DNA of 64,000 bases from Candidatus Eiseniibacteriota bacterium (GCA_965224245.1 OZ245046.1:3104001-3168000); one strand, 5' to 3'; positions 18,666 through 44,679 are shown, numbered from the stretch's first letter. The notes: generated from the letters alone by a model not told the origin. Program-made: numbers and translations.

Positions 18666-20180
18666 TCAGCGCAGGTACGTCATCCAGGCCGCGGCGGCCG
18701 CCTGGCCGTCTTCTCGCTCCAGCCGTACGAGGTAGCGTCCCGCACCGACGACCTGCCCGCTCTCGGCGCGTCCGTCCCAGTCCAGCTCGACGGGAAGCGA
18801 CTCGATCCGCCCGGACCAGAGGTCGCGCACCCGGCGTCCGGAGAGATCGTACACTCGCAGCGTGACCGCCCCCTGGAGATCCACGTCGGACGGAACCGAG
18901 ATCGACAGTCGCCCGTGCGTGGGGTTCGGCTGGACGCCCAGGTGCACCGGCCCGACGACGGTGCGCTCGCGCGATCCGAGACCTCCCCCGTCGGGACACG
19001 CCGGGAGATCGGTGGCGAGCGCCTCCGCGACCCCGAGGCCCTTGTCGTACGTCTCACCCTCGCCCCAGTAGTACATGCGCAGGACGTCCTCGCCCTCGGC
19101 GCTCTCCTCCCAGGTGTAGGACGTGACGTAGTAGTTCTTGTCGTCCCAGGCTCCGCTTCCCGCCGGCGGGTGATCGAGCACGGGACTCCCGGTCTTGCAC
19201 CACGTCTTGCCGCCGTCGGTCGAGACCGCGTGCGCGACCTTCGCGCAGCCCCGCGTGGTGCCGCCTCCGCTGGGCGTCTCGAACCATCCGGTCCCGGTGT
19301 AGAAGAGATGCAGCGTCACCCCGTCCGGATCGGCCACGAGCTGGCCGAGCGCGGTGGTCCCCACGTCGAACGATCCGCAGGGACCGGGAACGACGATGGG
19401 GTTGTTCACGCTCTTGCGCCAGTGGATGCGATCGGCGGACGTGGCCAGGTTGAGCGTGGCGAGCTGAAACGGCGCACCCGCTCCGACACACGTGAGGTTG
19501 TAGACCATGTAGTATCGACTGCCCACCTTCGCCACCGACGGGGTCCGGACGTTGTAGCCGGGCGTCTCGCTGGTCAGCACCGGCGCGCCGGAGTCCACGA
19601 ACGTGCGTCCGTTGTCGGGCGACGTCGCGTAGCCGATGCCGTTCCCCGCCCCCTGGAAGAACAGGTACGTCTCGCCGGTGTCGGCGTCCCGATGCACGTC
19701 GGGGCAGATGATGCTCGGATACCAGGTGCCGGAAGACGGGAACGCGAGATTGCCCGGGGTCCAGTCGATGCCGTTCTGGGATATGGCGTTCCGGAAGCCG
19801 GCGGGCTCGCCGGTCTGCTGGTTGGCCGGTGCCGCGTGCAGATGGTAGTAGAGCGTATCGGTGAACTTGGCTATGGAGAAGCAGTAGGACCCTGGCACCT
19901 GCGGATCGAAGATCGGCATCGATGAATAGGCGGCAGGCCGGACGAACACAGTGTTCTCTTCGAACGTCTCGCAATCGGTGATCGGCGTGCAGGGTGGCTC
20001 GGGACAGCTCCCCCGGGCCGTCTCCCACGACACCGAGCCCCAGGTGGCGCTGAACCGCTCCTGGAAGAGGCTCGGCTTCCGGTAGGGATCGCACGCACGC
20101 GCGCACTCGGGTGGAGACAGGAGCGATGCGGTCGTCACGAGGACGAGGGCGAGGACGAACGTCGATCTCGATGCGTGCAC
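18666..20180 (-). CDS. Secreted glycoside-hydrolase-like five-bladed beta-propeller protein with FlgD/T9SS-like CTD
   Basis: GTG start after GGAGG; signal peptide; blade repeats (SQNGIDW, GIGYATSPDNG, ATSADRIHW..NPI, AHAVSTDGGKTW..PVL); CTD QPNP..YDLSGRRVR..WDG. Confidence 0.72.
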   Translation of the reverse strand: MHASRSTFVLALVLVTTASLLSPPECARACDPYRKPSLFQERFSATWGSVSWETARGSCPEPPCTPITDCETFEENTVFVRPAAYSSMPIFDPQVPGSYCFSIAKFTDTLYYHLHAAPANQQTGEPAGFRNAISQNGIDWTPGNLAFPSSGTWYPSIICPDVHRDADTGETYLFFQGAGNGIGYATSPDNGRTFVDSGAPVLTSETPGYNVRTPSVAKVGSRYYMVYNLTCVGAGAPFQLATLNLATSADRIHWRKSVNNPIVVPGPCGSFDVGTTALGQLVADPDGVTLHLFYTGTGWFETPSGGGTTRGCAKVAHAVSTDGGKTWCKTGSPVLDHPPAGSGAWDDKNYYVTSYTWEESAEGEDVLRMYYWGEGETYDKGLGVAEALATDLPACPDGGGLGSRERTVVGPVHLGVQPNPTHGRLSISVPSDVDLQGAVTLRVYDLSGRRVRDLWSGRIESLPVELDWDGRAESGQVVGAGRYLVRLEREDGQAAAAAWMTYLR

Positions 20181-20431
20181 GGTGACCTCCATGTTTACGA
20201 CCGAGGTCCGTGACGCCGGTGCGACGATCGGACCTCCGGTCCACGCGTGGGCGACGTTGCGCGCACGTGGCGCGCCGACCCGGAGACTATCATCTGACGC
20301 CACCGGTCGCCGCCACGATCCGCACGGACCTCGGCGAGGCTCGAGCACAATCAGGAATCGAGACATAGTGGTTTCGTGTTTCGCGGAGAGGCGACGTCGG
20401 GGATCGCCGATGTACCGAGGCGCGACCCCGC

Positions 20432-23545: not shown

Positions 23546-25593
23546 GCGGGATCTCCTCCGGAACGTTGTAGAGCGGCCGTCGGCTCGGACCCACCCGCCT
23601 CCTCCGCGGGCTCGATCCCTTCGAGCATGGCCCTCGCCCGGCCGAGCGCATCCGGTGAACCCGACACCGCCAGCACGTCGTCGGCGCAGAGCCGCTCGTG
23701 TCCCGTGGGAAGCGTCGTGGTCGTGTCGTCGCGGCAGATCGCCACCACGGTCGCGCCGGTGCGACAGCGGAGATCGAGCTCGGCCAGGGTACGGCCGTCG
23801 GCCGGGCCCCCCGGGAGAACGGGTATCGGGTGGTAGTCGAGCCCCGCCAACGGTCCTGCGTCCAGGCTCGCGAGCAGGTCGGCATCGTCCGAACCGCCGC
23901 GGACGTGACCGGCGATGTCCAGCGCGATGCGGGCGACGCCCGACGTGTGCCTACCGTGGACGCTCCCGAGACGCATTCCCAGTACGACGAGTGCGATCAG
24001 GAGTGCCGCCACCAACGCGGCCTCGACCCACGGTCCTTCGACGACGGGTCGCATCAGCGCGAGCGTCGGCAGGCCGATGCCGAGCACGACGGTGAGGAGG
24101 GCCACGGCCTCCACGGCCTTGGCACGTGGTGTGGGGCCGCCGCGACCGCGACTGCGCGTGCGGATGCCGGCCGCCAGGTGCGATCCGCTGCGAAGGAGGC
24201 CGACCACGAACGGCGCCGCGATCACCACGGACACGACGTTCACGGCCAGCACCATGTTCGCCTCCACACGCGGCAGGACCGTATGTCGAACCACGAAGGT
24301 GACGATCAGCGCCGACCAGTCCAGGAGAACCGCGGTCGCCGGGCGCCGAAGCGACGGGCGTTCGCCCGGTTCGCGCGCGCCCCGCAAGAAGGCCTGGTAC
24401 GCGGCGAGCACCTGCTGGATCCGATCGGGTAGCCGGCGATCGATGGTATCGACGATCCTCAGCGCTCGGCCGAGCAGCAACGGGGTCGTGAACGCCGTGA
24501 TCGTGGCGACCGTGACCAGCACGGGAAGCGTCTCCTCGGGGACGATTCCGCCGGCGATCGCGATCGTGGCCAGGATGAACGAGAGCTCGCCGACCTGCCC
24601 CAGCGCCAGACCGGAGTAGACCCCGCGCCGCAACGAGCTCCCCGTGAGCACGGTGGACACCGTGACCGAGGCGAACTGCATCCCGACCACCACTGCACAC
24701 AGCACCAGCGCGAGCGGCATGCTTCGCCAGGCCACGACCGGATCGACCGTCATACCGATCGAGACGAAGAAGATGGCCGAGAACAGCGCCCGCAACGGCT
24801 CGATGGCCTTCTCGATGTCGTGGCCGCGGCCCGACTCGGCGACGGCCATCCCCGAGATGAACGCGCCGAGCGCCACCGAGTAGCCGAACTGGTTCGCCGC
24901 CAGCGCGAGACCGAAGGCCGCTCCTCCGACCAGCACGACCAGCACCTCGGTGTCCGCCTCGGCCAGCGCGACCCTGACCAGGCGCGGCAGGATCAGGAGG
25001 CCGATCACGAGCATCCCCACGACGGCGGCGGCGAGCTGCCCGATCAGGAGCCCCAGAGACCGCGCGGCGACGGCCTCCCCCGCCGCGAGTGCGGTCACGA
25101 CGGCCATCAGCACGATGGCGACGACGTCCTGCACGATCAGGATGCCGAACACGTGGGAGCGCACGTCTGGATCGACCGGCCGTGCGCGGAGCACGGCGCT
25201 GACCACCATCGTGCTCGAGATCGCCAGCGTCGTCCCGAGACACACGCTCGCGGTGGTGGACCACTGCAGGAAGGACCCCACGGTGAAGCCGGCCCACCCG
25301 AGCGTCGCGATCTGAACCACCGCGGTCAATCCGGATACCGGGAGAATGTCCAGAAAGCGCTGAATCCGGAACTCGAGCCCCACCGCGAACATGACGAGGA
25401 CGACGCCGACCTCGGCGAGCTCTTCCATCCGGTGCGGATCCGCGAACAGCGGGATCGGGATGTACGGCCCCACGATGAGCCCGGCAAAGAGATAGCCCAG
25501 GATGCTGGGCTGACCCATGCGCCGGGTGAGCATGCCGGTGATCGCGGCGACGACGGTCACCACCGCGAGATCGGCGATCAGACTGCCGTGCAA
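23542..25593 (-). CDS. CPA2-family cation:proton antiporter with C-terminal RCK_C (TrkA_C) domain
   Basis: PSILGYLFAG, GVVLVMFAVGLEF, ISSTMVV, LIVQDVV, FFVSIGM and GQVGELSF motifs; C-terminal GRTLAELDLR..GATVVAI. Likely TTG start at 25593 after AGGAGG (track start 25650). Confidence 0.9.
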   Translation of the reverse strand: MHGSLIADLAVVTVVAAITGMLTRRMGQPSILGYLFAGLIVGPYIPIPLFADPHRMEELAEVGVVLVMFAVGLEFRIQRFLDILPVSGLTAVVQIATLGWAGFTVGSFLQWSTTASVCLGTTLAISSTMVVSAVLRARPVDPDVRSHVFGILIVQDVVAIVLMAVVTALAAGEAVAARSLGLLIGQLAAAVVGMLVIGLLILPRLVRVALAEADTEVLVVLVGGAAFGLALAANQFGYSVALGAFISGMAVAESGRGHDIEKAIEPLRALFSAIFFVSIGMTVDPVVAWRSMPLALVLCAVVVGMQFASVTVSTVLTGSSLRRGVYSGLALGQVGELSFILATIAIAGGIVPEETLPVLVTVATITAFTTPLLLGRALRIVDTIDRRLPDRIQQVLAAYQAFLRGAREPGERPSLRRPATAVLLDWSALIVTFVVRHTVLPRVEANMVLAVNVVSVVIAAPFVVGLLRSGSHLAAGIRTRSRGRGGPTPRAKAVEAVALLTVVLGIGLPTLALMRPVVEGPWVEAALVAALLIALVVLGMRLGSVHGRHTSGVARIALDIAGHVRGGSDDADLLASLDAGPLAGLDYHPIPVLPGGPADGRTLAELDLRCRTGATVVAICRDDTTTTLPTGHERLCADDVLAVSGSPDALGRARAMLEGIEPAEEAGGSEPTAALQRSGGDPA

Positions 25594-26077
25594 CGAGGCC
25601 TCCTGCATTCGATGATCGGCCATTCGTGAGCGGTCCCCGGCCGTGCCCACGAGCGTGCGACCGGCGGAGCCCGCGTGTCCGTCGGGTCCTCTCGATCGCC
25701 GGAGGGTGCCGCACGCGTCGCCGACGTCACGGCAACCCTGCCCTGGCCGCCTGTCGTGCCGATGGAGATCGCAGGCTGATACAGTACAGGCTCGAACCCC
25801 GCGGTACTAATGCAGCGTCCCCTCACGCTCGTGTTCGTGGACATCGGCCCGTGCGCGGCATCGGCTTCCGGGTGACGACCCTTGCCGACTCTTCGTACGG
25901 CGAGACCCGTCGGATCGGCACGGGCGCCACGACCGTATCTCCGCCGAGCCGTTCCGGCTCGACACGACGGCCGACGCGGGGGATGCCTCCCGCGCCTGGC
26001 ACTTCCGGGGTGACCCCAGTCGGTTCGGCGCGCGGCCGACATCACTCGTGCCGTCGGCCGCCCAGCGAGTCGACGGT

Positions 26078-29000
26078 CTACTCCCCGGCGCCACGATCGG
26101 ATCCTCGGGCACGCCGCGGATCGCCGAGGTAGATGAAGGGGGCCCAGTAGTAGGGGTGAGGGTGGATCGTCGCGAAGCGTCGCTTCGCGCTCGCGATCGT
26201 CCCGAGGACGTCGCGCTCGCCAGACAGCACCGCTTCGTAGATCTCGCCCATGAGCTCGGCGTTTCGGCTGTCGTCGACCTGCCACTGACTGGCCAGCACC
26301 GCGTCCGCCCCGGCGTGAAGGAACCCCCACGGCAGACTCATGACCGTGTCACCGACCCGAACGCCGTGTCCGGAGTGGCACGCCGACAGGACGACGAGCT
26401 CGCATCCGGAGAGCCGGCCGACCCAGCTGCGGAGGAGATCCTCCAGCCGCAGGAATCCGATGTCGTCCACCGACGGGAGCTCGGGCGGGGTCAGTGCCAG
26501 GCTGGCATCGTAGGGCTGCGTGCTCGAGCCTGCGATCCCGTGCGTGGCGATGTGCAGGAAGCGCGCACCCGGCGCCGCCGCTTCGACCGCGGGCACGGTG
26601 GCGCGCGCACCGAGGAGGAGCGTCGTGGGCAGCCCCGCCGTCTCCGCGACGCGGCGGATCCGGGTCGCCTCCTCGCGGGAGCCGGGCAGCGGCGCGAGCC
26701 GCCCCCCGTAGAGCCGGATGTCGTCGAGCGAGAGCAGCTCGACCTCGGACAGACCTGCACGCTCGGAGGGCACGGTCGAGGCGAGCAGGTCCTCGCCGGC
26801 CGACGCGCGACCAAAGTCGGGATCGGCCACGATGACGAGATCGCGTGCCCCGGCCGCCGCGTCGAGCTTCGACCCGGCTCGACCCCGCTGATGGACGAAC
26901 TCGGTCGCGCTCTCCACGTACACGACGTCGGGCCCCTCGAAGAGCCAGAACTCCTCGGGTCGGGCGACCGTCGTGTCCACCGGGCTCTCCGTGGGAATCA
27001 GTGCTTCGAACGGTATGTCGCGGAGCACGCCATCGCGCGCGAGGATCAACCGGTCCGCTGCCATCGCGCGATCGCGGATCTCCGGCAGCAGCGCGAGGTC
27101 GAACGCCTCGCGGAGGGCTCGCGACAGCTCGGACGACATCGTCCCGGGCGCGAACGGATCGGGGCGCCGCTCGAGCTGCCCGCGCAGCCGGGTCAGACGC
27201 TCGCGAAGCACCCGCATCTCATCCCGCGCCCGGATCGACGCGGTGGTGATCGGCTGCGCGGACTCGGGGGTGACCAGCGTCGCCACGATGATCGTCCCGC
27301 CCCAGAGGTAGTCGAGGTACACCTCCCCCGGCTCCAGCGCGGCACGCAGGTCGTCGAACGAGATCGCCGACGCGATCTCGTATTCCCCGGCGTGACTGCT
27401 GCCGCGGAGCTCCGCCTCCTCGGCCCTGAGCTGCGCTCGAAGGTCGGTGACGCGATCGCGCTGACGAGCGATCGCCTCGTCGCTCGAGCCGTCCAATCCG
27501 TCATCCGGATCCACGAGACGCATCAGCTCGGACTCGGCCTGCACGAGCTGCTGGCGACGCGATCTCACCCGACGCTGGAGACTGTCGGCGCCGGCCGCCT
27601 CGGCGCCGGCGCGCAGGAAGTCGAGAAACGCACGGGAACGGCCGCGCTCACGGTAGTGAAAACACGCGGCCGGATCGTCCAGGTGGTACGACGACAGCGC
27701 CGCACGGCGGCACATCGCGTCGTGCCTCAGCCGGCCCGCCCGTCGCGCTCGCCAGCGCTCATCGCCCGACGTCTCCCGGAGGATCCTCTCCGCGTGAAGA
27801 ACCGCCTCGACCGCGGCCGCCCGGCAGGCCTCGTAGTCGGGCGGGATCGCGGCGACCATCATGCTCAGACCGTCCAGTAGCTCGATCAGCACCGGGTGAT
27901 CGGCGTCGAGGGAATCTCTGGCGAGCCGGGCGGCGTCCCGGAGGGTGGCGATCGCCAGATCGATCCGGTGGTTGTTGGAGCAGTGCTGTGCCAGAGAGCG
28001 CATGAGCCGGATGCGCGACACGAGGCTCCCGGGTTGCTCACGCTCCACGAGCTCGATCCGGCTCTGCATGACGGCGACGGCGCCGTCGGGATCGGTGTCG
28101 CGAAGAGCCCCTGCACGCATCAGCAGGAGGTCGAGCTGGACGTCCACGGGATACTCGTGCCATTCATCCACCGGCAGCCTGGCGGTGGCATACGCCATCG
28201 CGGAGTCCGCACCGACGTCATAGTAGAGGGTCGCCGCGTGCAGCCCGACCGCATTGATGTAGGCCGTGCGTCCCTCATCGGTGTCGGATTCCGCGCGCCG
28301 CATGATCTCGGCCACGACGTCCCGCGCGTCGTCGCGGCGGCCCCCGAGGTGATAGATCATCCCGACGTTGTGGAGAGCCGCGAGCGTCTGGGGACTGCTC
28401 GGACCCGTGTTCTCCTCGAAGTGGCGAACCGCCTCCCGAAGTAGCGCCGCACCGGTGGTGACGTCCCCTTTCCACCGATAGCTGACCGCGAGCTCGTTGC
28501 ACGTGGTCGTCAGGTCGATGACGTGGCCGCCGGCGGCCTCGAAGATCTCCCGTGCACGCATCAGGACCGGAAGCGCCGCGTCGAACCGGCGCTCGATGTT
28601 GAGCAGCGCTCCGTAGAGCCTGAGCGTCCTCGCGTGCTGGGGGTGCTCGGGGTGCACCGCGACCTCGTCGATGCGCAGCGCCTCGCTCACCGGCTCGACG
28701 GCCAGGTCCGCCCGATCGCGAGCGATGAGTGCCTGGCCCAGCGCGCACAGAATGCGTGAGAGCTCTCGGTGATCGGAGCCGAGGTGCTCCCTCCACACCT
28801 CCGCGGCACGGGCGAGTCGCGCCACGAGGACCTCGGGAGCGTCGTACTCCCCGGGCCAGAGCTCGTCCTCGGTCAGCTCGGCCCGGACGACGTCAGCTCG
28901 GATCGAGTCGGGCAGTGCCGCGATCGTGCCCAGCGTCTCGTCGAGATCGGCGAGCTCGAGACGCCGCCACGTCGGCGTGTCGTCGGAGAGGTTGGACCGG

Positions 29001-29221
29001 GCCCGGGAGACGAGCTCGCGTGCCTCGACGTAGCGTCCCTCGATCCTCAGTCGTCGGATCGTGCCATCGAGCGTGTCGGCCGGCGACACGGCCACGATGG
29101 CGTCGCGGCCGCCACCGGATCCGGTCGGCTCGGAGAACTCCGCGTCCTTCACGTCGCAGCCGATGAGCACGAGCCCCGCCAGGACGGTCATCACGATCGG
29201 ACGTCGCCGACGCTCAGCCAT
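26078..29221 (-). CDS. Lipoprotein TPR-CHAT (caspase-fold) protease
   Basis: MAERRRRPIVMTVLAGLVLIG-C lipobox; TPR repeats; ERGRSRAFLD; CHAT motifs LRDIPFEAL, PLPGSREE, FLHIATHG (His), LVVLSACHSG (Cys), ASQWQVDD and HPYYWAPFIYLG. Confidence 0.9.
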   Translation of the reverse strand: MAERRRRPIVMTVLAGLVLIGCDVKDAEFSEPTGSGGGRDAIVAVSPADTLDGTIRRLRIEGRYVEARELVSRARSNLSDDTPTWRRLELADLDETLGTIAALPDSIRADVVRAELTEDELWPGEYDAPEVLVARLARAAEVWREHLGSDHRELSRILCALGQALIARDRADLAVEPVSEALRIDEVAVHPEHPQHARTLRLYGALLNIERRFDAALPVLMRAREIFEAAGGHVIDLTTTCNELAVSYRWKGDVTTGAALLREAVRHFEENTGPSSPQTLAALHNVGMIYHLGGRRDDARDVVAEIMRRAESDTDEGRTAYINAVGLHAATLYYDVGADSAMAYATARLPVDEWHEYPVDVQLDLLLMRAGALRDTDPDGAVAVMQSRIELVEREQPGSLVSRIRLMRSLAQHCSNNHRIDLAIATLRDAARLARDSLDADHPVLIELLDGLSMMVAAIPPDYEACRAAAVEAVLHAERILRETSGDERWRARRAGRLRHDAMCRRAALSSYHLDDPAACFHYRERGRSRAFLDFLRAGAEAAGADSLQRRVRSRRQQLVQAESELMRLVDPDDGLDGSSDEAIARQRDRVTDLRAQLRAEEAELRGSSHAGEYEIASAISFDDLRAALEPGEVYLDYLWGGTIIVATLVTPESAQPITTASIRARDEMRVLRERLTRLRGQLERRPDPFAPGTMSSELSRALREAFDLALLPEIRDRAMAADRLILARDGVLRDIPFEALIPTESPVDTTVARPEEFWLFEGPDVVYVESATEFVHQRGRAGSKLDAAAGARDLVIVADPDFGRASAGEDLLASTVPSERAGLSEVELLSLDDIRLYGGRLAPLPGSREEATRIRRVAETAGLPTTLLLGARATVPAVEAAAPGARFLHIATHGIAGSSTQPYDASLALTPPELPSVDDIGFLRLEDLLRSWVGRLSGCELVVLSACHSGHGVRVGDTVMSLPWGFLHAGADAVLASQWQVDDSRNAELMGEIYEAVLSGERDVLGTIASAKRRFATIHPHPYYWAPFIYLGDPRRARGSDRGAGE

Positions 29222-30050
29222 CACCGATCTTGATCCTGAACGGGAGTCGGGCCGCCGGGCGAGCACGATCCGGTGGTGTGCCCACCCAGATCTGGAGCTC
29301 CGCGTCCGTGTCGGCGTCGGGGCGGGGAACGCGCACGACCAGCACGTCCGGCTCCTCCAGGTGAGGCGTCTCGATCACCACCGCGTCGCGGTCCGTCACG
29401 AGGGCCAGCGTCCAGTCGGCTCGCCTCGGAACGAGCTCGGCCGGAAGCACGATCACGATCTCCGGGTCGCTCTCGGACGCCGTGACCTCGGCGACCTGCC
29501 CCCGGACCGAGTCCAGCCGGACCCAGGGCACCACGCTCGCCTCCGGTGCCGGCGACTCCTCACCGAGCCGCACCACCAGGAGCACGGCACAGGCGGCCGT
29601 CGCGACCAGGGCCCATCCGGCCGCCAGACGCGATCCCAGCGCCGGCCACCGGCGGCGACGCACGTGCCCGGTGGCGGCCGGGTAACGCGCATCGCCGGTC
29701 GTACCGAGAGCCGTGACGACCGCGTCCGATGCCGTGTGAGTGGGTCCGGTCGGGAGCTCCAGGGCGCCACGGCACAGGGCACAGCGCTCGAGATGGCGCT
29801 CGGCGATCTCTCGCTCGACTCGACCCAGACGATCCCGGATGCGTGGCCAGGACGCGAGGAACGCGACGGGGAGATGCTCGCCGGAGAACGCGTGAGGCTC
29901 GGCCGCCTGCGCGGCGAGCACACGATCGTAGAGCTCGCGGCAGTCGTCGTCCTCGAGCAGCAGGGCCTGGAATCGCTCGTGGTCGCGATCGGAGAGAAGA
30001 CCGCTCTCGTACCCGATCACGTGATCACGGAACCACTCGCGGTCGCTCAC
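29214..30050 (-). CDS. Membrane-anchored zinc-binding (ZAS/zf-HC2) anti-sigma factor
   Basis: GTG start overlaps the sigma stop (GTGA). H-x26-HLERCALC ZAS motif, TM helix LAAGWALVATAACAVLLVV, extracytoplasmic beta-rich domain. Its stop overlaps the CHAT start. Confidence 0.8.
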   Translation of the reverse strand: MSDREWFRDHVIGYESGLLSDRDHERFQALLLEDDDCRELYDRVLAAQAAEPHAFSGEHLPVAFLASWPRIRDRLGRVEREIAERHLERCALCRGALELPTGPTHTASDAVVTALGTTGDARYPAATGHVRRRRWPALGSRLAAGWALVATAACAVLLVVRLGEESPAPEASVVPWVRLDSVRGQVAEVTASESDPEIVIVLPAELVPRRADWTLALVTDRDAVVIETPHLEEPDVLVVRVPRPDADTDAELQIWVGTPPDRARPAARLPFRIKIGDG

Positions 30051-30622
30051 GCCAGCGCCTCCCTGAGAATCTCCGAGAGCATCGTGAGCTCGTCGTCGCG
30101 ATCGATCCTCGTACGCAGCGTGCTCAGACACCGGGACCAGCGCTGTCGGAGCGCCGCGTGGGTCGAGTCGAGCTCCGTCGCCACGTCCTTCCAGGTGCGC
30201 TTCGCGAAGTACGCCTCGGCCAGGCGGTGACACTCGGTCCCGCGACCGAGCGCTTCGGCGACGAGGAAGCGGACCCAGGCGATCGCATCCAGGTCGTTCG
30301 CCGGCCTCGCACTCGCCGTCGCGCTCTCGTGCTCGGTCAGGGGCGACGTGTACTTCGACACCACCTTCGAATGACGGAGGAACGAAAGGGCCTGACGCTT
30401 GGCGACCGTCGTCATGAAGGCCTCGTGGTTCTCGATCGCCTGCGTGTCCATGCTTCGGTAGACCCCGATCAGTGCTTGCTGGGTCACGTCCTCGATCTCC
30501 GCCGGATCCCGCCCCCGCAGCGTCCGGGCCACGACGTCACGAATGAACCGCCGTGCCCAGGCCCAGTCGATTTCGGGCTCCGGATGCCTCCGAGGGCCGG
30601 ATGACGGATCGATGGGGAGCAT
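30047..30622 (-). CDS. ECF sigma factor (divergent)
   Basis: EIEDVTQQAL region 2.2, FMTTVAKRQALSFLR region 2.3-2.4, and WKDVATEL..ALRQRWSRC region-4 HTH. GGAGG RBS; directly upstream of an anti-sigma. Confidence 0.8.
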   Translation of the reverse strand: MLPIDPSSGPRRHPEPEIDWAWARRFIRDVVARTLRGRDPAEIEDVTQQALIGVYRSMDTQAIENHEAFMTTVAKRQALSFLRHSKVVSKYTSPLTEHESATASARPANDLDAIAWVRFLVAEALGRGTECHRLAEAYFAKRTWKDVATELDSTHAALRQRWSRCLSTLRTRIDRDDELTMLSEILREALA

Positions 30623-30725
30623 GAGGTACCTCCGGCTGGCGGCCGCAACGAGCTGTCGTGGCGCAGCTTAGCAACCGGGGAGGATCTTGCTCCACCCGAA
30701 ACTCATCTCCAACGACGCTCCGCCG

Positions 30726-30776
30726 CTCCCGGTGTGACGCGATCTCCCGGTGTCACACCGTCCTCCTCCTCGCGTC
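30726..30776. promoter_or_regulatory. Repeat element and putative ECF-type promoter between the sigma and radical SAM genes
   Basis: CTCCCGGTGT direct repeat (30726, 30744); CGGTGTGAC-N13-GTCACACCG inverted repeat (30730-30760); TGTCACA-N15-CGTC facing the radical SAM gene. Confidence 0.45.
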
Positions 30777-30844
30777 GTTTCGGCCAACGCGCTGCCCCGG
30801 CCGGGAGCGGCGACTCGACCCACGCACCAACATCGGAGGCCGTC

Positions 30845-31972
30845 ATGTCAGTCCCCGTCGTCGAACCGTCCCAGACCGCCCGGCTCTCGCGCCTCATGGC
30901 CGAGGATCCGGCGCTCGGCGCTCGCTTCCGCCGGCTCCGGCGCTTCTCGGCGCGCGTTCGCGTCTCGGAGTACCACTTGACCAACGCCTGCAACCTGCGG
31001 TGCCGCGGCTGCTGGTTCTTCGAGTTCGGCCACGACCGCGACAGCCGCGAGGTGACCGATCTGGGACGCCTCGACGCGTTCGTGCGCTCCGAGCGCGAGC
31101 GTCGCATCAACACCGCGCTCCTGATCGGGGGCGAGCCGACCCTGGTCCCCGAGCGAATCGACGTGTTCAGGCGGCACATGACCCACGTGACGATCTCCAC
31201 CAATGGGCTGCATCCCCTTCCGTACGACGGATACGAGGACGTCGCGATCGGGGTGACGTTGTTCGGAGGTGGTCCGCTCGACGACGAGCTCCGAGCGATC
31301 CGACCCGGAGGACGCCGCTTCCGCGGCCTGTTCGATCGCGCGCTCACGAGCTATCGCGACGATCCGCGCGTGGGGTTCATCTACGCCGTCACCGAGAACG
31401 GCATCGACCACGTCGAGGACACCGTCGCGCGCATCGCCGACAACGGCAACCGGGTCACGTTCAACTTCTACAGCGCCTACGGGACGGACGACCCGCTGGC
31501 GATGACCCAGCAAGCGCGACTTCTCGACGAGCTGCTGCGCGTGCGATCGGCGTACCCGGACGTGGTCATGAGCCACCCCACGTACATACGTGCGCTCATC
31601 ACCGGTCGCACCTCATGGGGGACTTTCGGCTACGAGACCTGTCCCTCGATCAGCGTCGACCACCCGGCGCACGCCGAACGCATCCGGAACGGCAACCCGG
31701 TCCTCCCCCGTTTTGCCACGTGGGGGGCCGATCTGGAGACCCTCAAGACGTGCTGCACGTCGGGACATTGCGACGGCTGCCGGGACAGCCAGGCGGTTCA
31801 GAGCTGGCTCCTCGTGAGCAGCCGTCACTTTCTCGATGACCTCTCCACTCTCCGGACGTGGGTGGAGCTGGCGGAGTCCTACTGGAGCCAGTTCGTGTGG
31901 AGCCCGTGGAGCCCACACCACCGAGATCACGTCGTTCGCGTCCCGCAGCTCGTCCCGGAGTGTGGCGCATGA
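30845..31972 (+). CDS. Radical SAM protein with C-terminal Cys cluster (SPASM/twitch-like)
   Basis: CNLRCRGC, GGEPT and STNG motifs; C-terminal ETCP..TCCTSGHCDGC. ATG at 30845 with GGAGG RBS. Confidence 0.88.
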   Translation: MSVPVVEPSQTARLSRLMAEDPALGARFRRLRRFSARVRVSEYHLTNACNLRCRGCWFFEFGHDRDSREVTDLGRLDAFVRSERERRINTALLIGGEPTLVPERIDVFRRHMTHVTISTNGLHPLPYDGYEDVAIGVTLFGGGPLDDELRAIRPGGRRFRGLFDRALTSYRDDPRVGFIYAVTENGIDHVEDTVARIADNGNRVTFNFYSAYGTDDPLAMTQQARLLDELLRVRSAYPDVVMSHPTYIRALITGRTSWGTFGYETCPSISVDHPAHAERIRNGNPVLPRFATWGADLETLKTCCTSGHCDGCRDSQAVQSWLLVSSRHFLDDLSTLRTWVELAESYWSQFVWSPWSPHHRDHVVRVPQLVPECGA

Positions 31973-32460
31973 GGAGACATGACACGTCCCCGACCCGAGA
32001 AAGCGTCCGGTCCCCCGGCACGCAGGCGCTCGCTCGCATCGAGGCGCTGCCGATCGTGAAGCACCTCGGGCTCGAGATCGGGCTCGACGACACCGGCACC
32101 GCGAGGGCGTGGCTGTCGAGCGTCGAGCCCTTTCACCTGGGCGGACTCGAGGAAGCGGTGCTGAACGGCGGCATCGTGCTGTCTCTGCTCGACGCGGTCG
32201 TCGCGTCGGCGGCTCTCGTCCACGTGGGTCGAGGACGGTGCGGGACGGTCCAGCTGAACGCGCAGATCGCACGTCCGGTTCCGGCGCGTCGCAGCGTCGC
32301 CGTCGGACGCATCACCGACGGCGGCCGCCGGCTGCTGTTCGCCGAGGCGTGGATCGAGCACCCGATCCACGGAGTCATGGCCCGCGCATCCGCGGTTCTC
32401 GCCCGGCTGCCGTGTCACACCCGGGCGGGCGAGGAGACGTGTCAGATGAGGCCCGAGTAA
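31969..32460 (+). CDS. PaaI/hotdog-fold thioesterase
   Basis: ATGA overlap with the radical SAM gene; HLGLEI, LNGGIVLSLLD, TVQLNAQIARP and GRRLLFAEA motifs. Confidence 0.82.
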   Translation: MRRHDTSPTRESVRSPGTQALARIEALPIVKHLGLEIGLDDTGTARAWLSSVEPFHLGGLEEAVLNGGIVLSLLDAVVASAALVHVGRGRCGTVQLNAQIARPVPARRSVAVGRITDGGRRLLFAEAWIEHPIHGVMARASAVLARLPCHTRAGEETCQMRPE

Positions 32461-32490
32461 CGACACGCGACCCTTTCCAGGAGGACACCG

Positions 32491-34050
32491 ATGCAGAACG
32501 CGAGCTCATCACCCGCTTCGGCCATCCAGCGCCCGACGAGCGCCCCGGAAGCCTCGAGATCTCTCATCCGTGCCGGCGGCGTGCGGGTCGGCCTCGTCCT
32601 GAGTGCGATCGCGCTCGCCGCGGCCGTGCCCACGCGAGGGCGCGCCGAGATCATCCACGTCCCGGCGGACTACCCGACCGTGGCCGGCGCGCTGCTCGCC
32701 GCGCAGGCCGGTGACGAGATCGTCCTGGCCTGCCAGGAGCACGTGGGACCGGCCGTTCTCGGTCCCGACCGGGACGGCGTGATCATCCGCGCCGCCACCG
32801 ACGGGTGTGCCACGTACACCGGTCGGCTCGAGCTCGAGTCTTCCGTCACCATCGAAGGCCTCCTGTTCGACGCCGGAGACGTCTTTCACGACGGATCGAT
32901 GGAGCCGATCGAGCTCCGGATCCGTCGGACGCGCTTCACGGGCGCTCCGCAACCGATCTGGGTCGGCTCGGCCGACGTCGACCTGACCGACGTGGTCGTC
33001 GATCAGGGCGGGCTCACGATCCAGGCGGGTCGTGTCCGGATCTCCGGGAGCACGTTCATCACGCACGGCGTCATGGCGCCGTCGCTGAGCTCGCTAACGA
33101 TCGAGAACAGCACGTTCGGAGATGGTCGGACCCTCTGCCAGTCCTACATGGGCCTGGACCCCGAGGGCACGTTCGAGATCTCCGACTGTCACTTCCAGCA
33201 CTCCACGGTGCAGATCAACCCGGACACGAGCTCTGACGCCCCCGTGATCACCTTCCGCGGATGCACGTTCGAGGACGGGAGACAGGGGCGTCGTGCGATC
33301 CATGCGACGTACGTCGGAGCCGTCTTCGAGGACTGCTCGTTCCTCGGCAACGCCGGGGTCGCGGTGAGGATCGACAGGGCGAGGCACCCGGTGCAGCTCG
33401 ACTCCTGTCGTTTCGTCGGCAACGGTGAAGCACTGCAGATCTTCTCTCCGTTGCAGCCCGTTCAGCTCCGATCCTGCGTGTTCCTGGAGAGCGATCGGGG
33501 CGCCGTCCACCTCGGGCTGGGGGCGACCGGTGAGGCGTCCTTCGTCGGCTGTACGTTCTCCCGCAACGTCGGCTCAGCGGGCGCCATCGCCAACGGATGG
33601 TACGGACTGGCGGGTGGTCGGATCCGGATCGAGGAATCGACGTTCTTCGAGAACGCGGCCAACAGCCAGTACGGCGTCGCACACATCAACGCCCGAGACG
33701 CCGAGCTCGTCATGTCGGAGTGTGTCGTCTACGGGGGCACGGGAACCTGCAGCGTCGCGACCGGCGAGGGTGCGGTCGACGTCTCCTGCACGGACATCTA
33801 CGGGATCGAGAACGGACACGACTGGACCGGCTGCAGCGCGTCCCTGGCCGCCCAGCTGGGCGCGCACGGAAACGTCTCGTCGGATCCGATGTTCTGCCGC
33901 GAGGACCCGCACGGGGCGGAGGACTGGAGCGTGGACGAGGCCTCGCCCACCCAGGTCGACGGGTGCGCCATGGGCGCCTGGCCGGCGTCGAGCTGCGTCG
34001 TTCCGATCGAGAGCGTGTCCTGGGGTCGGCTCAAGTCCAGCTACAGATGA
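32491..34050 (+). CDS. Secreted right-handed parallel beta-helix protein with SWGxxKxxYR tail
   Basis: IIHVPADYPTV..AGDEIVL start; repeated C.F..N turns; GNVSSDPMFC..SP..MGA; ends VPIESVSWGRLKSSYR*. Confidence 0.82.
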   Translation: MQNASSSPASAIQRPTSAPEASRSLIRAGGVRVGLVLSAIALAAAVPTRGRAEIIHVPADYPTVAGALLAAQAGDEIVLACQEHVGPAVLGPDRDGVIIRAATDGCATYTGRLELESSVTIEGLLFDAGDVFHDGSMEPIELRIRRTRFTGAPQPIWVGSADVDLTDVVVDQGGLTIQAGRVRISGSTFITHGVMAPSLSSLTIENSTFGDGRTLCQSYMGLDPEGTFEISDCHFQHSTVQINPDTSSDAPVITFRGCTFEDGRQGRRAIHATYVGAVFEDCSFLGNAGVAVRIDRARHPVQLDSCRFVGNGEALQIFSPLQPVQLRSCVFLESDRGAVHLGLGATGEASFVGCTFSRNVGSAGAIANGWYGLAGGRIRIEESTFFENAANSQYGVAHINARDAELVMSECVVYGGTGTCSVATGEGAVDVSCTDIYGIENGHDWTGCSASLAAQLGAHGNVSSDPMFCREDPHGAEDWSVDEASPTQVDGCAMGAWPASSCVVPIESVSWGRLKSSYR

Positions 34051-34163
34051 CGGCCGGTCACGCGGCGCCCCGGCGCCAGGAGCCCGGCGCGGCGCTCTGT
34101 TCGGCAGGAGCAGCGAGAATCGGATCTCGCAAACCATCACCACGTTTCCACGGAGTGTCACAC

Positions 34164-34706
34164 ATGACCCGCACACATCCACCGATCTCCTCGGGCCCCT
34201 CACGCCGCGTCCGCCGACTCGGCCCGGTGGTCTTGCTCGTCGCGATCGCACTCTGCAGCTGTGAGAAGAAGCCGAGGATCGCCGAGCCCGATCCCGAGTC
34301 GTTTCGGATCTGGGTCGACGGCGAGCGAGCCGACATCGTCCACCGCGAAGTGGGCGTCTACGGTGGGTTCCAGGTGTCCGGTGTGATCCGGCTCGCCGAC
34401 GACTTTGCACAGTTCGGGTTCTTCACCCCCCTGATCGAGCCCGGCACCTACGTGTTCGACACCGACTCGCTGGTCGGGGGACTCGGGATCATCGAGCCCG
34501 GGGAGGACGCACCGCGCGTGCTCTACTCGACCTGTGCGCTCCCCGATCCGGGCTCGATCACGATCGAGTCGGTGGAGGACGGTCGGTACACCGGCTGGTC
34601 GGAGTTCGACGCCGCGGAGATCGACGGTGCCGGAGGCTGCATGCCGGTCGGAGATCGACGCGTCCGGGTGAGATGCGAGTTCGACGTCACGGCTCGGACC
34701 GAGTGA
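34164..34706 (+). CDS. Hypothetical lipoprotein
   Basis: GGAG RBS before ATG at 34164; VVLLVAIALCS-C lipobox; beta-rich mature domain (PGTY..GSITI..YTGWSEF). Confidence 0.6.
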   Translation: MTRTHPPISSGPSRRVRRLGPVVLLVAIALCSCEKKPRIAEPDPESFRIWVDGERADIVHREVGVYGGFQVSGVIRLADDFAQFGFFTPLIEPGTYVFDTDSLVGGLGIIEPGEDAPRVLYSTCALPDPGSITIESVEDGRYTGWSEFDAAEIDGAGGCMPVGDRRVRVRCEFDVTARTE

Positions 34707-34955
34707 GCCTGTCACGTCGCACGTGGTATACAGGCCGACGGGATCGGGTCGAGGCCGGTGTGCCTCGACCCCAAACCGCTGTTCGGTCGAATGGCCCGGA
34801 GCCCGGGCCTCCCTACCGTCGAGACAAGCCGCCCCCGATGATCGAAATGTGACCCCTCCGTGAGGAACTGACGCCATTCGATCTCTAGGCTGCGAAGCGG
34901 TCTTGAAACGAGACCCGTGCTTTGCCGTCGTTCAACCGATCCCAGGAGGTACCAC

Positions 34956-36656
34956 ATGTCTCGCACGATCGTGGCCGTTCTGATGGCGAGCCTGTCGCCC
35001 GCGGTCTTTACGCCGGCAGCAACGCAGGCGGCCGTCGAGTACGACTACGAGACCACCCTGCCCGGCTACTACCTCGGTCGGGGTCTGGACGTCGTCGTGG
35101 ACGATGCCGGCGACGCGTTCGTGAGCGGGTCGTACTACGCGGACGAGCACACGCTCGACATCCTGATCGCCAAGCTCGATGCCGACGGAACGCCGCTCTG
35201 GAGCGTCCCCGTCGGGGCGGACAACTCGGTTCACGACCACGCGGGTGGCATCTGCCTCGATGCGGCGGGCGACCTCTGGGTCGCGGGGTGGACCTCGTCC
35301 GAGAGCTTTCCCACCACGCCCGACGCCCTCGACGACACGCCGTCGTTCGCGGGTGACGTCTTCGTCATGAAGCTCGCGTCCGCGGACGGCTCCATTCTCT
35401 ACAGCACGCTCATCGGCGGCGACTACGTCGACCGCGGCTACGACATCTGCATCGACGACGCGGGCGCGATCTACGTGACGGGGTTCACCGGCTCCACGGA
35501 CTTCCCCACCACACCCGATGCCTATCAGCCCGAGCCGAGCGCGCCGCTGTACATCTTCCAGGACGCATTCGTCGTCAAGCTCTCGCCGGACGGCCGGACG
35601 CTCCTCTACAGCACGTACTTCGGCGGGTTCGAGGACGACTGGGGCGAGAACATCGCCGTCGACGCCGACGGGAACATCGTGATCTCCGGAACCACCGACG
35701 CCGAGGACTTCCCGCTGGCCAACCCGATCCAGTCCACCCCGGACCGCATCTTCGTCTCCAAGCTCTCCGCGGACGGCAGCGAGGTGCTCTTCGGCACCTA
35801 CTTCGGCGGGGAGAACATCGACTACCTGCGCGGCATGGACCTCGATCCCCTGGGCAACGTGTACCTCACGGGCACCACCCGGTCGGTCTCCTTCCCCACG
35901 ACCGCCGGCGCGTTCCAGGAGGACTTCGTCGGCGAGATCAACGGCTGCGAGGAGGGCTTCCCCGGACATCCCGTGAACTGCTTCGACGGATTCCTGGCCA
36001 AGCTGGCCACCGACGGCAGCGGCCTCCAGTACGGGACCTATCTCGGTGGCAGCCTCCACGACGAGCCGTCCACGGTGGTGGTCGACCCGTCGGGAGCCGC
36101 CCACGTCGTCGGCTACTCCGGCTCCCCCGACTACCTGGGATCGGGTAGCAGCTCGGCGTCCATCTTCGTGGCCGGGCTCGACGCCGGCGGAAGCGCCGTG
36201 GAGTACGTCGTCACGAAGGCCTCTCCCAGCGCCGGGGCCGGCCACGGGATCGCACTCGACGCGACCGGCGACGTCTACTTCACCGGCGCGCTCGGTGTCC
36301 CGTACGACATCTACATCGCGAAGCTGGGCATGCCGGCCATCGTCTCCGTCGGCGACGCCGGCACCGGGCCCGGCTTCCTCACGCTCGGTCCGAGCACTCC
36401 GAACCCGTTCCGGGCGTCCACGCAGGTGACGTACTCGGTCAACGGCGTCGACGACGTGCACGCTCGGCTTCGCGTCTTCGATGCGTCGGGGCGCCTGGTG
36501 CGCACGCTCGTCGACGGCGTCGTGACCCCCGGCGCGCACTCGGAGACGTGGGACGGCACGAACCAGGCAGGGGGACGCGTGTCTCCGGGCGTGTACTTCT
36601 ACCGGCTGGAGGCGCGCCAGGCCAGCACCACCGGTCGCATGTTGCTCGTCCGATGA
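34956..36656 (+). CDS. Secreted SBBP-repeat beta-propeller protein with FlgD/T9SS-like CTD
   Basis: AGGAGG RBS; repeated VTGxTxSxDFPTT..DAFVxKL..LLYSTYFGG; CTD PNPF..FDASGRLVRTL..WDG..GVYFYRL. Confidence 0.88.
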   Translation: MSRTIVAVLMASLSPAVFTPAATQAAVEYDYETTLPGYYLGRGLDVVVDDAGDAFVSGSYYADEHTLDILIAKLDADGTPLWSVPVGADNSVHDHAGGICLDAAGDLWVAGWTSSESFPTTPDALDDTPSFAGDVFVMKLASADGSILYSTLIGGDYVDRGYDICIDDAGAIYVTGFTGSTDFPTTPDAYQPEPSAPLYIFQDAFVVKLSPDGRTLLYSTYFGGFEDDWGENIAVDADGNIVISGTTDAEDFPLANPIQSTPDRIFVSKLSADGSEVLFGTYFGGENIDYLRGMDLDPLGNVYLTGTTRSVSFPTTAGAFQEDFVGEINGCEEGFPGHPVNCFDGFLAKLATDGSGLQYGTYLGGSLHDEPSTVVVDPSGAAHVVGYSGSPDYLGSGSSSASIFVAGLDAGGSAVEYVVTKASPSAGAGHGIALDATGDVYFTGALGVPYDIYIAKLGMPAIVSVGDAGTGPGFLTLGPSTPNPFRASTQVTYSVNGVDDVHARLRVFDASGRLVRTLVDGVVTPGAHSETWDGTNQAGGRVSPGVYFYRLEARQASTTGRMLLVR

Positions 36657-36674
36657 TCTGAACGAGTCCGATCG

Positions 36675-36715
36675 GGGCCTCGCTCCCGTCTCGCGAGAGA
36701 CGGAGAGCGAGGCCC
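36675..36715. terminator. Hairpin between convergent genes (likely bidirectional terminator)
   Basis: GGGCCTCGCTCCCGTCTC-GCGA-GAGACGG(A)GAGCGAGGCCC: an 18-bp stem with one bulge and a GNRA loop; no U-tract. Confidence 0.6.
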
Positions 36716-36724
36716 ACGACGGCG

Positions 36725-38140
36725 TCAGCGCGCGAGAACGGCCTTCCGCGACCGGACGCCGGTCGCGGTGGAGAGCGTCACGACGTAGGTTCCGGCGGGG
36801 AGCCGCCGGCCGGCGTCGTCGTGACCATCCCAGCCCACCACCAGCGCTCCTCCGGTCGACCTCGAGTGAACGAGCCGGACGCGCCTCCCGGTCACGTCGA
36901 AGACCGCCAGACTGACCGGCCCCGGCGAGACCGAGCCGGTGAACAGCGTCGACGTGTGGAACGGATTGGGCATCGGCGGATCGAGCCGGCTGACGACGGG
37001 TTCGATCACAGGGTCGCCGACACCGATCGCGGGTGGCGCCAGCCAGGAGTAGTAGAGTCTCGAGCCGCTCCTCTCGTCCACATACGAGACGTGTGGACGC
37101 CCCGCCGAGTCCAGACCGAGGGACGAGTGCTTCCCGACCGTCCCCACGGTGGCGACGCGCGTCTCGTGCCAGACCGTACCGTCGTGCCGGAGGTAGACCA
37201 GGTCGGCGGCGCCCTCGTCGTAGGTGGAGATGTGCGGCCGATCGTCCCCGTCGAGCGCCAGCGCGTTGTACGCCCCGATGTCGCTGCTTCCGGCGTCGAT
37301 CGAGACGTCCTCCCAGTCCGAGCCGGTCCATCGGAGGTACACGATCCGTCGGTCGGGGTAGAACTTCCCGCAGGCCACGTGCGGGTTGTCGTCCGAATCG
37401 ATCGCGATCTGCGGCCAGTGGCCGGCGCTCACGGACTCGAGCAGCTCGAGGTCCCAGAACCCGTCGGAGCCGAGAACGGCATACCAGAAGTCGTAGGTGG
37501 AGTAGTTGCAGTACGCGATGTGCGGCATCCCGTCGCCATCCACGGCGATCGACGACCACCCCGTGAACCCGAAGTCGACCTCCGTGACGTGCCACGTGGC
37601 GCCGTCCCGGGTCGCGTACCGGAGGTCGCCCTCGCTCTCGACGTCCGCGTAGGAGATGTGGGGACGTCCGTCTGTGTCGACGGCGATGGAGGGAAACTCG
37701 CCCAGCGTCCAGTCGGACGACGAGTCCACGGTCTCGATGCTCCAGTCGACGCCGTCGAAATGCGCGTACCACAGGCCGTCCGCGTGGTAGGCCACGTGCA
37801 GTCCGTCGTTCGCGTCGATGGCCAGCGAGATCCCGAAGCCGACCGGCGAGACGTCGACGATCTCCGTCTGCCAGGTTCCCCCCGGGGTCTTCCAGGCGTG
37901 CTTGAGCGCCTGCTCGAGCGTGGAGCGGTACGCGACGTGCGGCTGATCGCTGGAATCGAGGACGATGGACGAGTACTCGCCCGTGTACGGCTCGACGTCG
38001 ACGAGTTCGGTTCGCCAGCCGGCCTCCGCGGGGACAGCCAGGAGAACGACGCACATCGCCGGCAGCCAGCGCGGGCGCAACCACATGGACCTGGGATTCA
38101 CTCCCGGGGACGTTGCGGCGCGGGGCTCGTTCACCGTCAT
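36725..38140 (-). CDS. Secreted beta-propeller repeat protein with FlgD/T9SS-like CTD
   Basis: About seven repeats of SIA(V/L)Dxx(G/D)xPH(I/V)(S/A)Y..L.Y..W..E.VD; CTD PNPF..FDVTGRRVR..WDG..GTYVV..RKAVLAR. GGAGG before ATG at 38140. Confidence 0.82.
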   Translation of the reverse strand: MTVNEPRAATSPGVNPRSMWLRPRWLPAMCVVLLAVPAEAGWRTELVDVEPYTGEYSSIVLDSSDQPHVAYRSTLEQALKHAWKTPGGTWQTEIVDVSPVGFGISLAIDANDGLHVAYHADGLWYAHFDGVDWSIETVDSSSDWTLGEFPSIAVDTDGRPHISYADVESEGDLRYATRDGATWHVTEVDFGFTGWSSIAVDGDGMPHIAYCNYSTYDFWYAVLGSDGFWDLELLESVSAGHWPQIAIDSDDNPHVACGKFYPDRRIVYLRWTGSDWEDVSIDAGSSDIGAYNALALDGDDRPHISTYDEGAADLVYLRHDGTVWHETRVATVGTVGKHSSLGLDSAGRPHVSYVDERSGSRLYYSWLAPPAIGVGDPVIEPVVSRLDPPMPNPFHTSTLFTGSVSPGPVSLAVFDVTGRRVRLVHSRSTGGALVVGWDGHDDAGRRLPAGTYVVTLSTATGVRSRKAVLAR

Positions 38141-44075: not shown

Positions 44076-44679
44076 GGAGCGCCCTGGCGAGCCGGGACAC
44101 CGCGCGACTCACGGCCTTGCGTGCCGCGATGGTGGACGGCTTTCCCAGTATGTCGGCCACGTGCTCGTAGGGAAGACCCATCTCGAGGCGGGCGATGATC
44201 GCCTCGCGATCGACGTCGCGGAGCGCGCGGAGCGCCTTCTCGTACCGGGCCATCTCGTCCTGCGTGACGACGTGGTCGAGCGCGTTCGGCACGGACGGAC
44301 CCGCTGCGTCGTCCGCGAGCGGCAAAGAGGTCGGGCGGCGTCCGAGTCGACGGGCCTCCTCCCTCACCCGGTTGTGGAGTGTCGTGCGGAGGTAGGCGAG
44401 GAGCGCGCCGTCGCGCCGGTGCTCGAATCCGGAGAGGTTCTTCAGCGTCCGGACGATCGTCTCCTGGACGAGATCGTCGGTCTCCAGCATGCCCCGCGCG
44501 CCCGCCGGCACCCGACCCCGCGCCCAGCGCTGGAGCATGGGCAGATATCGGTTGCAGAGCCGGTCGAGGGCCGCGGCGTCGCCGAGCTGGGCCTTGTGCA
44601 GGAGCTCGACCGACGACTCGGTGCGAGTCCTGGTGCGTCGTGAGGCATGCTCTCGCGGGTTGCCGCTCTCGACCTGCAT
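44062..44679 (-). CDS. ECF sigma factor, kinase-associated
   Basis: LLHKAQLGDAAALDRL..RY, MLETDDLVQET, YLRTTLHNRVRE and YEHVADILG..ARKAVSRA motifs; overlaps the kinase start. Start at 44679 or 44700. Confidence 0.88.
   Translation of the reverse strand: MQVESGNPREHASRRTRTRTESSVELLHKAQLGDAAALDRLCNRYLPMLQRWARGRVPAGARGMLETDDLVQETIVRTLKNLSGFEHRRDGALLAYLRTTLHNRVREEARRLGRRPTSLPLADDAAGPSVPNALDHVVTQDEMARYEKALRALRDVDREAIIARLEMGLPYEHVADILGKPSTIAARKAVSRAVSRLARALHDRA

Follow-up and report, generated by a model that had tools for sequence, protein, structure and literature searches.

The DdvS/DdvA system of M. xanthus combines a sigma factor of the extracytoplasmic function (ECF) type with a single anti-sigma factor in which a ZAS domain, a membrane helix and a TPR-CHAT region in the periplasm are joined (PMC11506125), and it is the only studied relative of the modules described here, in which the ECF sigma factor, the anti-sigma factor and the CHAT protein are encoded by separate genes. 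As presented in that source, a signal is proposed to induce self-cleavage by the CHAT domain, which is followed by RseP proteolysis, and the signal is argued to be a protein (PMC11506125). The promoters of DdvS are given as GTAA-n16-CGT (PMC6061681). In the type III-E CRISPR craspase, the TPR-CHAT protein Csx29 cleaves Csx30, which holds an RpoE-like sigma factor (PMC10028731, PMC11506125), while ECF41-type promoters are defined by the signature TGTCACA-n16±1-CGTC (PMC3426412). Here, we analysed a stretch of 64,000 nt from Candidatus Eiseniibacteriota bacterium (GCA_965224245.1 OZ245046.1:3104001-3168000), hereafter the window, which has a G+C content of 70% and belongs to a genome of 6.94 Mb with a completeness of 97.4%. 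The locus of interest (26078-34706) contains a split ECF/anti-sigma/CHAT operon on the minus strand and, divergent from it, an operon that begins with a radical SAM (rSAM) enzyme and a hotdog-fold thioesterase. We consider it probable, though well short of certain, that a transferred rSAM-thioesterase fragment has been wired here as the output of a split DdvS/DdvA-like ECF module.

The genes were called from lists of open reading frames (ORFs), family scans against Pfam and NCBIfam, and a gene call based on GC3, the G+C content at third codon positions. An initial annotation of this DNA had laid out the two divergent operons, and their content and coordinates were confirmed by the ORF lists and family scans. 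The first gene of the minus-strand operon (30047-30622) encodes an ECF-type sigma factor of 191 aa. Sigma factors of this type possess sigma-2 and sigma-4 regions, lack region 3 and measure about 190 aa; in agreement, Sigma70_r2 was matched with 34.3 bits (cutoff 24), while TIGR02937 (sigma70-ECF) gave 31.8 bits, under its cutoff of 42.9, and the ECF models aligned over residues 26-176, all below cutoff. The next gene (29214-30050, minus strand) encodes a protein of 278 aa which matched nothing in Pfam, NCBIfam or, by phmmer, the PDB. Inspection by eye revealed the sequence HLERCALC, which follows the pattern HxxxCxxC, together with a single hydrophobic span, and the C-terminal domain has about 110 aa. 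The motif and the span are compatible with a single-pass anti-sigma factor of the ZAS type. At C1:4.96 Mb of the same genome, a paralogue (36% identity over 97 aa) is encoded next to a sigma factor and a CHAT gene that are themselves paralogous, which fits this putative assignment. The third gene (26078-29266, minus strand; likely start 29194 by the GC3-based call) encodes a TPR-CHAT protein (Pfam CHAT, 9.7e-44; TPR_12, 7.3e-24). As judged by eye from the translation, it begins with a signal peptide and the lipobox LIGC, and it has the caspase-like His in FLHIATHG and Cys in LSACHSG. In a phmmer search of PDB chains, its TPR region matched kinesin light chains only and its CHAT domain was left unmatched.

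The initial annotation knew of no described system with this layout. DdvS/DdvA proved to be comparable, although the layouts are not identical. In both cases, as far as the M. xanthus system is described in the source, an anti-sigma factor with a zinc-type HxxxCxxC N-terminal domain and one membrane span comes after an ECF sigma gene, and a TPR-CHAT unit in the periplasm, about 1000 aa long, carries a His/Cys dyad; autoregulation by the sigma factor and its use of neighbouring promoters would be a further likeness, which we propose here from motifs. In contrast to the single polypeptide of DdvA, the putative anti-sigma factor and the TPR-CHAT lipoprotein of the window are separate genes; the motif TGTCACA-N15-CGTC (see below) differs from GTAA-n16-CGT (PMC6061681); the neighbouring output is an rSAM-thioesterase operon and not CBASS or CRISPR genes; and the genome holds at least nine copies of the module. 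Since the phmmer comparison with PDB chains matched neither the CHAT domain nor the anti-sigma factor, the likeness to DdvS/DdvA is to be read as architectural only. The craspase, as described, likewise ties a TPR-CHAT protease genetically to a sigma factor and to a putative anti-sigma factor, whereas it is cytoplasmic and RNA-guided and the window locus is without Cas genes. The CAS_III-E_sigma model gave a negligible match (16.9 bits, cutoff 100; E 0.0048).

The minus-strand operon is one of an expanded paralogous family. A total of 15 CHAT ORFs were identified in the genome, nine of which had a same-strand sigma ORF at most 6 kb upstream (C1: 187k, 947k, 1070k, 3134k, which is that of the window, 3576k, 4262k, 4902k, 4964k and 5477k), and the genome therefore holds at least nine sigma-CHAT operons. 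Three of them can clearly be read as sigma/anti-sigma/CHAT operons, namely that of the window and those at C1:4965303-4961068 and C1:1070994-1075146; the anti-sigma gene lies between the sigma and CHAT genes in the three closest copies, and sigma paralogues with 29-32% identity head the two other operons. Matches to the CHAT protein were also obtained in 28 of 41 related genomes. Within the window, sigma modules of a second type were observed, in which an ECF sigma gene is followed by a large Ser/Thr kinase-TPR gene, all on the minus strand (10154-10720 with 7545-10157, and 44062-44679 with 40875-44075).

The first gene of the divergent operon (30845-31972, plus strand) encodes an rSAM enzyme of 375 aa (PF04055, 35.9 bits, cutoff 29.5). 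Its cluster motif CNLRCRGC (C49/C53/C56) was invariant in an alignment of the family (A1), where the common pattern is CNxRCxGCWFF. A C-terminal cysteine set, formed by C266 and CCTSGxCxxCRDSQA (C266, C303, C304, C309 and C312), was likewise conserved, all five residues being invariant, which suggests, from the sequence, an auxiliary cluster. The AF2 model had a pLDDT of 79.4, with low confidence over residues 304-323, and its nearest folds in Foldseek were anSME, ChlB, AbmM, CteB and SkfB (E 1e-8, TM 0.41-0.50); a sequence search of the PDB returned SkfB only (7.6e-5). These SPASM/twitch enzymes are its best structural matches; the protein is only 12-20% identical to them, its context points to thioester chemistry rather than peptide or sulfatase maturation, and none of the SPASM or twitch models in Pfam and NCBIfam reached its cutoff. 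The search for homologues yielded 813 proteins; the best 120 of these, the window's own protein excluded, were 59-66% identical and came from several phyla (Streptomyces, Tistrella, Sulfurifustis, Trinickia, Ramlibacter and many metagenomes). No functional name was attached to any of these best 120, and the protein atlas offered 'radical SAM protein' as the only name.

The thioesterase gene (31969-32460, plus strand) overlaps the rSAM gene by ATGA at 31969-31972, and the ATGA overlap reported for this pair was thus verified. Its product of 163 aa belongs to the hotdog-fold 4HBT family (PF03061, 23.9 bits, cutoff 20.6). The earlier label 'PaaI' was too specific, given that TIGR00369 scored 21 bits against a cutoff of 36.6, and the PDB sequence search produced one match only, the uncharacterised protein 4rmm (E 0.015). 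H32, H56, G58, G59, N66, G67 and D75 were invariant in an alignment of 11 hotdog proteins linked to rSAM genes (A2), and the protein of the window retains all of them, including D75, which we take to be the acidic catalytic residue that the fold carries on its central helix.

To count the neighbours of the rSAM gene in other organisms, as the initial annotation had advised, we collected 97 rSAM loci from among the 813 homologues, 79 from species genomes and 18 from metagenomes, with flanks of 8-10 kb where the contig allowed. Iterated hidden Markov models (HMMs) recovered the rSAM ORF in 96 of them. A PaaA_PaaC-like gene of about 250 aa was present in 85 of the 96 loci, usually immediately upstream of the rSAM gene and often with a 4-bp overlap; in five of the 11 loci that lack it, the sequence available upstream of rSAM is shorter than 1.2 kb. 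A class-I/II aminotransferase was found in 36 loci. The hotdog gene was found 3' of rSAM in 24, all orthologous to that of the window, and the hotdog proteins linked to the cassette form one subfamily; by tblastn it was detected in 20 of the 79 species loci, directly downstream of rSAM in 19. One further locus (L074) has a different hotdog gene, of 4HBT_2 type, right after rSAM. Pfam annotation of 84 neighbouring proteins identified CoA/AMP ligases, acyl carrier protein (ACP), ketosynthase (KS), KASIII, Sfp-type transferase, thiolase, nonribosomal peptide synthetase (NRPS), polyketide synthase (PKS), type-II thioesterase, and AurF-like, Rieske and P450 oxygenases. As these neighbours lie in biosynthetic clusters, the rSAM enzyme is part of a widespread thioester-based biosynthetic cassette. 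An example is found in Streptomyces venezuelae ATCC 10712 (L055, 7021-9056), which encodes the rSAM enzyme next to a diiron protein of the PaaA_PaaC-like kind. It is unusual for an rSAM enzyme to be combined with a diiron protein that uses oxygen, and our literature searches found neither a paper on this cassette nor a published function. An rSAM family that is 55-66% identical across phyla and almost always paired with a PaaA-like protein in biosynthetic clusters is a good target for natural-product enzymology.

The window shows both agreement with this cassette and a marked reduction of it. Its rSAM enzyme has 55-66% identity to relatives in Streptomyces, Kitasatospora, Burkholderia, Tistrella, Marinobacter, Myxococcota and others, and it shares with the proteobacterial loci the gene order, an orthologous rSAM gene followed by an orthologous hotdog gene, and the translational coupling. 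Unlike the cassette elsewhere, no PaaA-like gene adjoins the rSAM gene, PF05138 (PaaA_PaaC) had no match in the whole genome, and aminotransferase, CoA ligase, ACP and KS genes were absent within the window. The rSAM enzyme itself was detected in one of 41 related genomes and in one of 206 genomes of the phylum, in both cases that of the window, and the other 205 were negative. In a FastTree phylogeny, printed without support values, it grouped with L028, L100, L091, L003, L001 and L002, and this clade lay inside a larger group with all hotdog-linked loci except L022 and L039. We conclude from these sequence comparisons that the rSAM-hotdog pair is probably a horizontally acquired cassette fragment without its usual diiron partner. 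That the enzyme pair acts on an acyl or aryl thioester is plausible, as its relatives occur in clusters that also hold ACPs, ketosynthases, CoA ligases and NRPS/PKS genes, and to this extent the initial annotation is supported.

The sigma and rSAM genes are separated by exactly 222 bp (30623-30844), as had been claimed. The ECF-like promoter that was said to face the rSAM gene is real as a motif: TGTCACA (30751-30757) is followed after 15 nt by CGTC (30773-30776) on the plus strand, and its GTCACA begins 93 nt before the ATG at 30845. A near-identical mirror copy faces the sigma gene on the minus strand (30714-30739), where cGTCACA (30739 to 30733) is followed after 15 nt by CGTC (30717 to 30714) and begins 116 nt before the sigma start codon. 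The two copies mirror each other through the inverted repeats I3 and I4 and form an imperfect palindrome, which reads AACGACGC (30711-18), N11, CGGTGTGAC (30730-38), N13, GTCACACCG (30752-60), N11, GCGTCGTT (30772-79). Because both operons share this palindromic pair of candidate promoters, the rSAM operon would most likely be a member of the regulon of the sigma factor. Control of the enzyme pair by this ECF factor, as earlier proposed, is thus plausible from the mirrored motifs in the common intergenic region; promoter function being inferred from the motifs, we hold it to be about as probable as its opposite. If the reading is correct, the mirrored TGTCACA-N15-CGTC pair offers a concrete regulon that can be tested for one of the split ECF/anti-sigma/CHAT modules, which form a large family yet to be studied.

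The candidate promoters resemble those of ECF41-type sigma factors, with an identical -35 heptamer, an identical -10 CGTC and a spacer of 15, and with a position before both the sigma gene and a neighbouring target (PMC3426412). ECF41 sigma factors are described as having a fused C-terminal regulatory domain and no anti-sigma factor (PMC3426412), whereas the sigma factor of the window has 191 aa and an anti-sigma partner. This architecture argues against ECF41 membership, and the likeness is one of promoter motif.

Several further features of the intergenic region were recorded. A perfect 12-nt inverted repeat, CGCCGCTCCCGG / CCGGGAGCGGCG, at 30721-30732 and 30801-30812, crosses the promoter palindrome, and its right arm duplicates the spacer of the sigma-facing promoter. 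The palindrome was at first read as AAC-N16-CGG promoters whose starts coincide; this gave way to the reading as back-to-back GTCACA...CGTC motifs. A riboswitch or attenuator was considered and dropped, given that Rfam returned only two chance-level matches over 30500-30950 (E about 5) and the folds were unremarkable. Scans of 25500-37000 gave no sigma-70 promoter and one terminator-like site, within the rSAM gene, and both are uninformative.

The most serious alternative is that of chance adjacency, in which, without any regulatory link, a transferred pair came to lie beside one of about 90 sigma genes, the palindrome being the operator of some other dimeric regulator or a structural element. 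The genome encodes 92 sigma-type ORFs, about one per 75 kb, so that a sigma gene is a common neighbour. Both copies of the motif are arms of the same imperfect palindrome; the exact bipartite boxes AACGACGC-N11-CGGTGTGAC occurred genome-wide at this locus only, and a wider regulon was not found by them; and the canonical AAC-N15-18-CGT promoter was absent from both strands of the intergenic region. However, the two closest paralogous sigma genes are preceded by GTCACAC-N14-CGAC at -123 and GTCGAT-N14-CGAC at -96, in a single orientation and without a palindrome, which is easier to reconcile with a promoter than with an operator. The loose pattern GTCACA-N14-16-CG[TA]C, which occurs 99 times on both strands of the genome, is expected by chance only about 0.0016 times per 222-nt strand, and the RNA fold of 30690-30850 was not unusual (z -1.48 on the plus and -0.06 on the minus strand), which speaks against a structural element. 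On balance, chance adjacency without a regulatory link appears unlikely to us, although it deserves to be taken seriously.

The reading that we prefer, a transferred enzyme pair wired to a split DdvS/DdvA-like module, describes the locus as two back-to-back units with separate histories. The minus-strand unit, from sigma to CHAT, would be a split version of the M. xanthus design, in which an envelope or protein cue would activate the periplasmic CHAT protease, the protease would remove the periplasmic part of the anti-sigma factor, and intramembrane proteolysis would then free the sigma factor. The plus-strand unit would be an rSAM-hotdog pair, horizontally transferred from a proteobacterial-type cassette (a PaaA-like diiron protein and rSAM, with or without hotdog, class-I aminotransferase, CoA ligase, ACP or KS), with the genes of two envelope or secreted proteins behind it. 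The units would be joined by the palindromic, back-to-back pair of ECF-type promoters, and the freed sigma factor would transcribe its own operon together with the divergent rSAM-thioesterase operon, possibly including the beta-helix and lipoprotein genes. The enzyme pair would modify an acyl or aryl group bound to CoA or ACP and release the free acid.

A number of observations weigh against this reading. The motif, in the pattern used, was unmatched in six of the nine sigma-CHAT modules and is therefore not general to the module family. The promoters are recognised by their motifs, and a palindromic element that served as a single operator for a dimeric regulator, or as a hairpin, would by itself yield both of them. 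An upstream GTG at 30734, if it were the true rSAM start, would place the rSAM-facing motif inside the gene; the ATG at 30845 is preferred, on account of a GGAGG 6 nt 5' of it, the GC3-based gene call and alignment A1. Cleavage of the anti-sigma factor by the CHAT protein is drawn by analogy with the DdvA mechanism, which is itself only proposed. Lastly, the PaaA-like partner is missing genome-wide, and without it the rSAM-hotdog pair may be inactive or may have a different function here.

A bolder version of the preferred reading can be formulated, in which a split DdvA-like module captured the rSAM-thioesterase pair under a bidirectional ECF promoter, so that an envelope or phage cue is converted into an acyl or aryl acid which, in the boldest form, feeds back on the CHAT protein. 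We regard this as improbable as a whole, and the feedback of the enzyme product on the CHAT protein is pure speculation.

The initial annotation had gone further and suggested a quorum-sensing-like positive feedback loop, in which the rSAM enzyme and thioesterase make a diffusible acyl signal, the TPR-CHAT protein senses it and destroys the anti-sigma factor, and the freed sigma factor induces more synthase. The divergent layout with mirrored ECF-type promoters would permit such feedback, the enzymes are linked to thioesters, and the products that hotdog enzymes release are free acids. In a Ramlibacter metagenome-assembled genome, a single case, a LuxI-type autoinducer synthase (PF00765, 5.4e-35; L028, 11118-11699, minus strand) is encoded about 2 kb downstream of the rSAM-hotdog pair, which there, too, has no PaaA-like gene. 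The proposed synthase and receptor, however, do not occur together across genomes. An HMM built from the 15 CHAT ORFs of the genome matched none of the 97 rSAM loci, and tblastn with the CHAT, anti-sigma, sigma, beta-helix, lipoprotein and SBBP proteins of the window matched none of the 79 species loci. A narrow sigma HMM, with five matches in the genome, was too specific, and three broad ones were used instead (85, 87 and 91 matches in the genome); these found a sigma ORF in one of 97 loci, a marginal match at the edge of the locus (L041, 1-372; E 6e-4 to 2e-3). The rSAM-thioesterase homologues thus occur without CHAT or ECF neighbours, with the hotdog gene kept in a quarter of the loci, which is the very finding that the initial annotation had named as contradicting it. 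The genome itself has nine sigma-CHAT modules against a single rSAM gene of this type, only the window's CHAT ORF among the 15 adjoins it, and across genomes the single rSAM occurrence in the phylum contrasts with the 28 of 41 related genomes that hold the CHAT protein. The absence of the usual PaaA-like partner counts against the loop as well, and the enzymes matched no known autoinducer synthase family in the Pfam and NCBIfam scans. TPR domains usually bind proteins. The authors of the DdvA work, for their part, favour a protein signal (PMC11506125). A caspase-fold quorum sensor would be striking, but we judge it very unlikely, and the evidence favours the more ordinary case of a transferred enzyme pair under an ECF promoter.

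Equally improbable is a defence island, in which an antiviral output would be turned on by a DdvS/DdvA-like module and the rSAM enzyme would act in a viperin-like manner: DdvS/DdvA is reported to control CBASS and CRISPR-Cas genes (PMC11506125) and the best NCBIfam and PADLOC matches of the rSAM enzyme are viperin models, but these matches are restricted to the general Fe-S/SAM core (NF038283, residues 41-122 only, 30.3 bits against a cutoff of 180; PADLOC pVip, profile positions 3-79 of 257) and fall short of the full-length match expected of a prokaryotic viperin (pVip), no other protein of the locus matched PADLOC, and the rSAM relatives lie in biosynthetic clusters and not in defence islands.

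The remaining genes of the plus-strand operon encode a small putative lipoprotein (34164-34706) and, before it, a secreted right-handed beta-helix protein (32491-34050; Beta_helix, 2.6e-19). The former is single-copy in the genome and had no match in Pfam, NCBIfam or PADLOC. The latter has at least 11 paralogues in the genome, with 24-33% identity, and ends in a C-terminal tail, ...PIESVSWGRLKSSYR (34006-34050), that is named by no family model. The tail follows the pattern P-x4-[ST]WG-x-[ILVM]K-x(1-2)-[YF], usually then R and the stop codon, and lies at most five residues from the C-terminus in 35 of the 41 matching ORFs; it looks like a lineage-specific sorting signal. Given the paralogues and the tail common to 35 ORFs, the beta-helix protein belongs to the host secretome and not to the transferred unit. 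The same tail was observed on the product of a gene at 3830-4582 (minus strand). The surroundings of the rSAM operon are rich in secreted and envelope proteins, and many secreted proteins of the window carry FlgD_ig or Por_Secre_tail C-terminal domains, which are tails of the type IX secretion type (11848-13293, 13647-16217, 18666-20192, 34917-36656, 36725-38140, 44944-49959 and 58022-59875).

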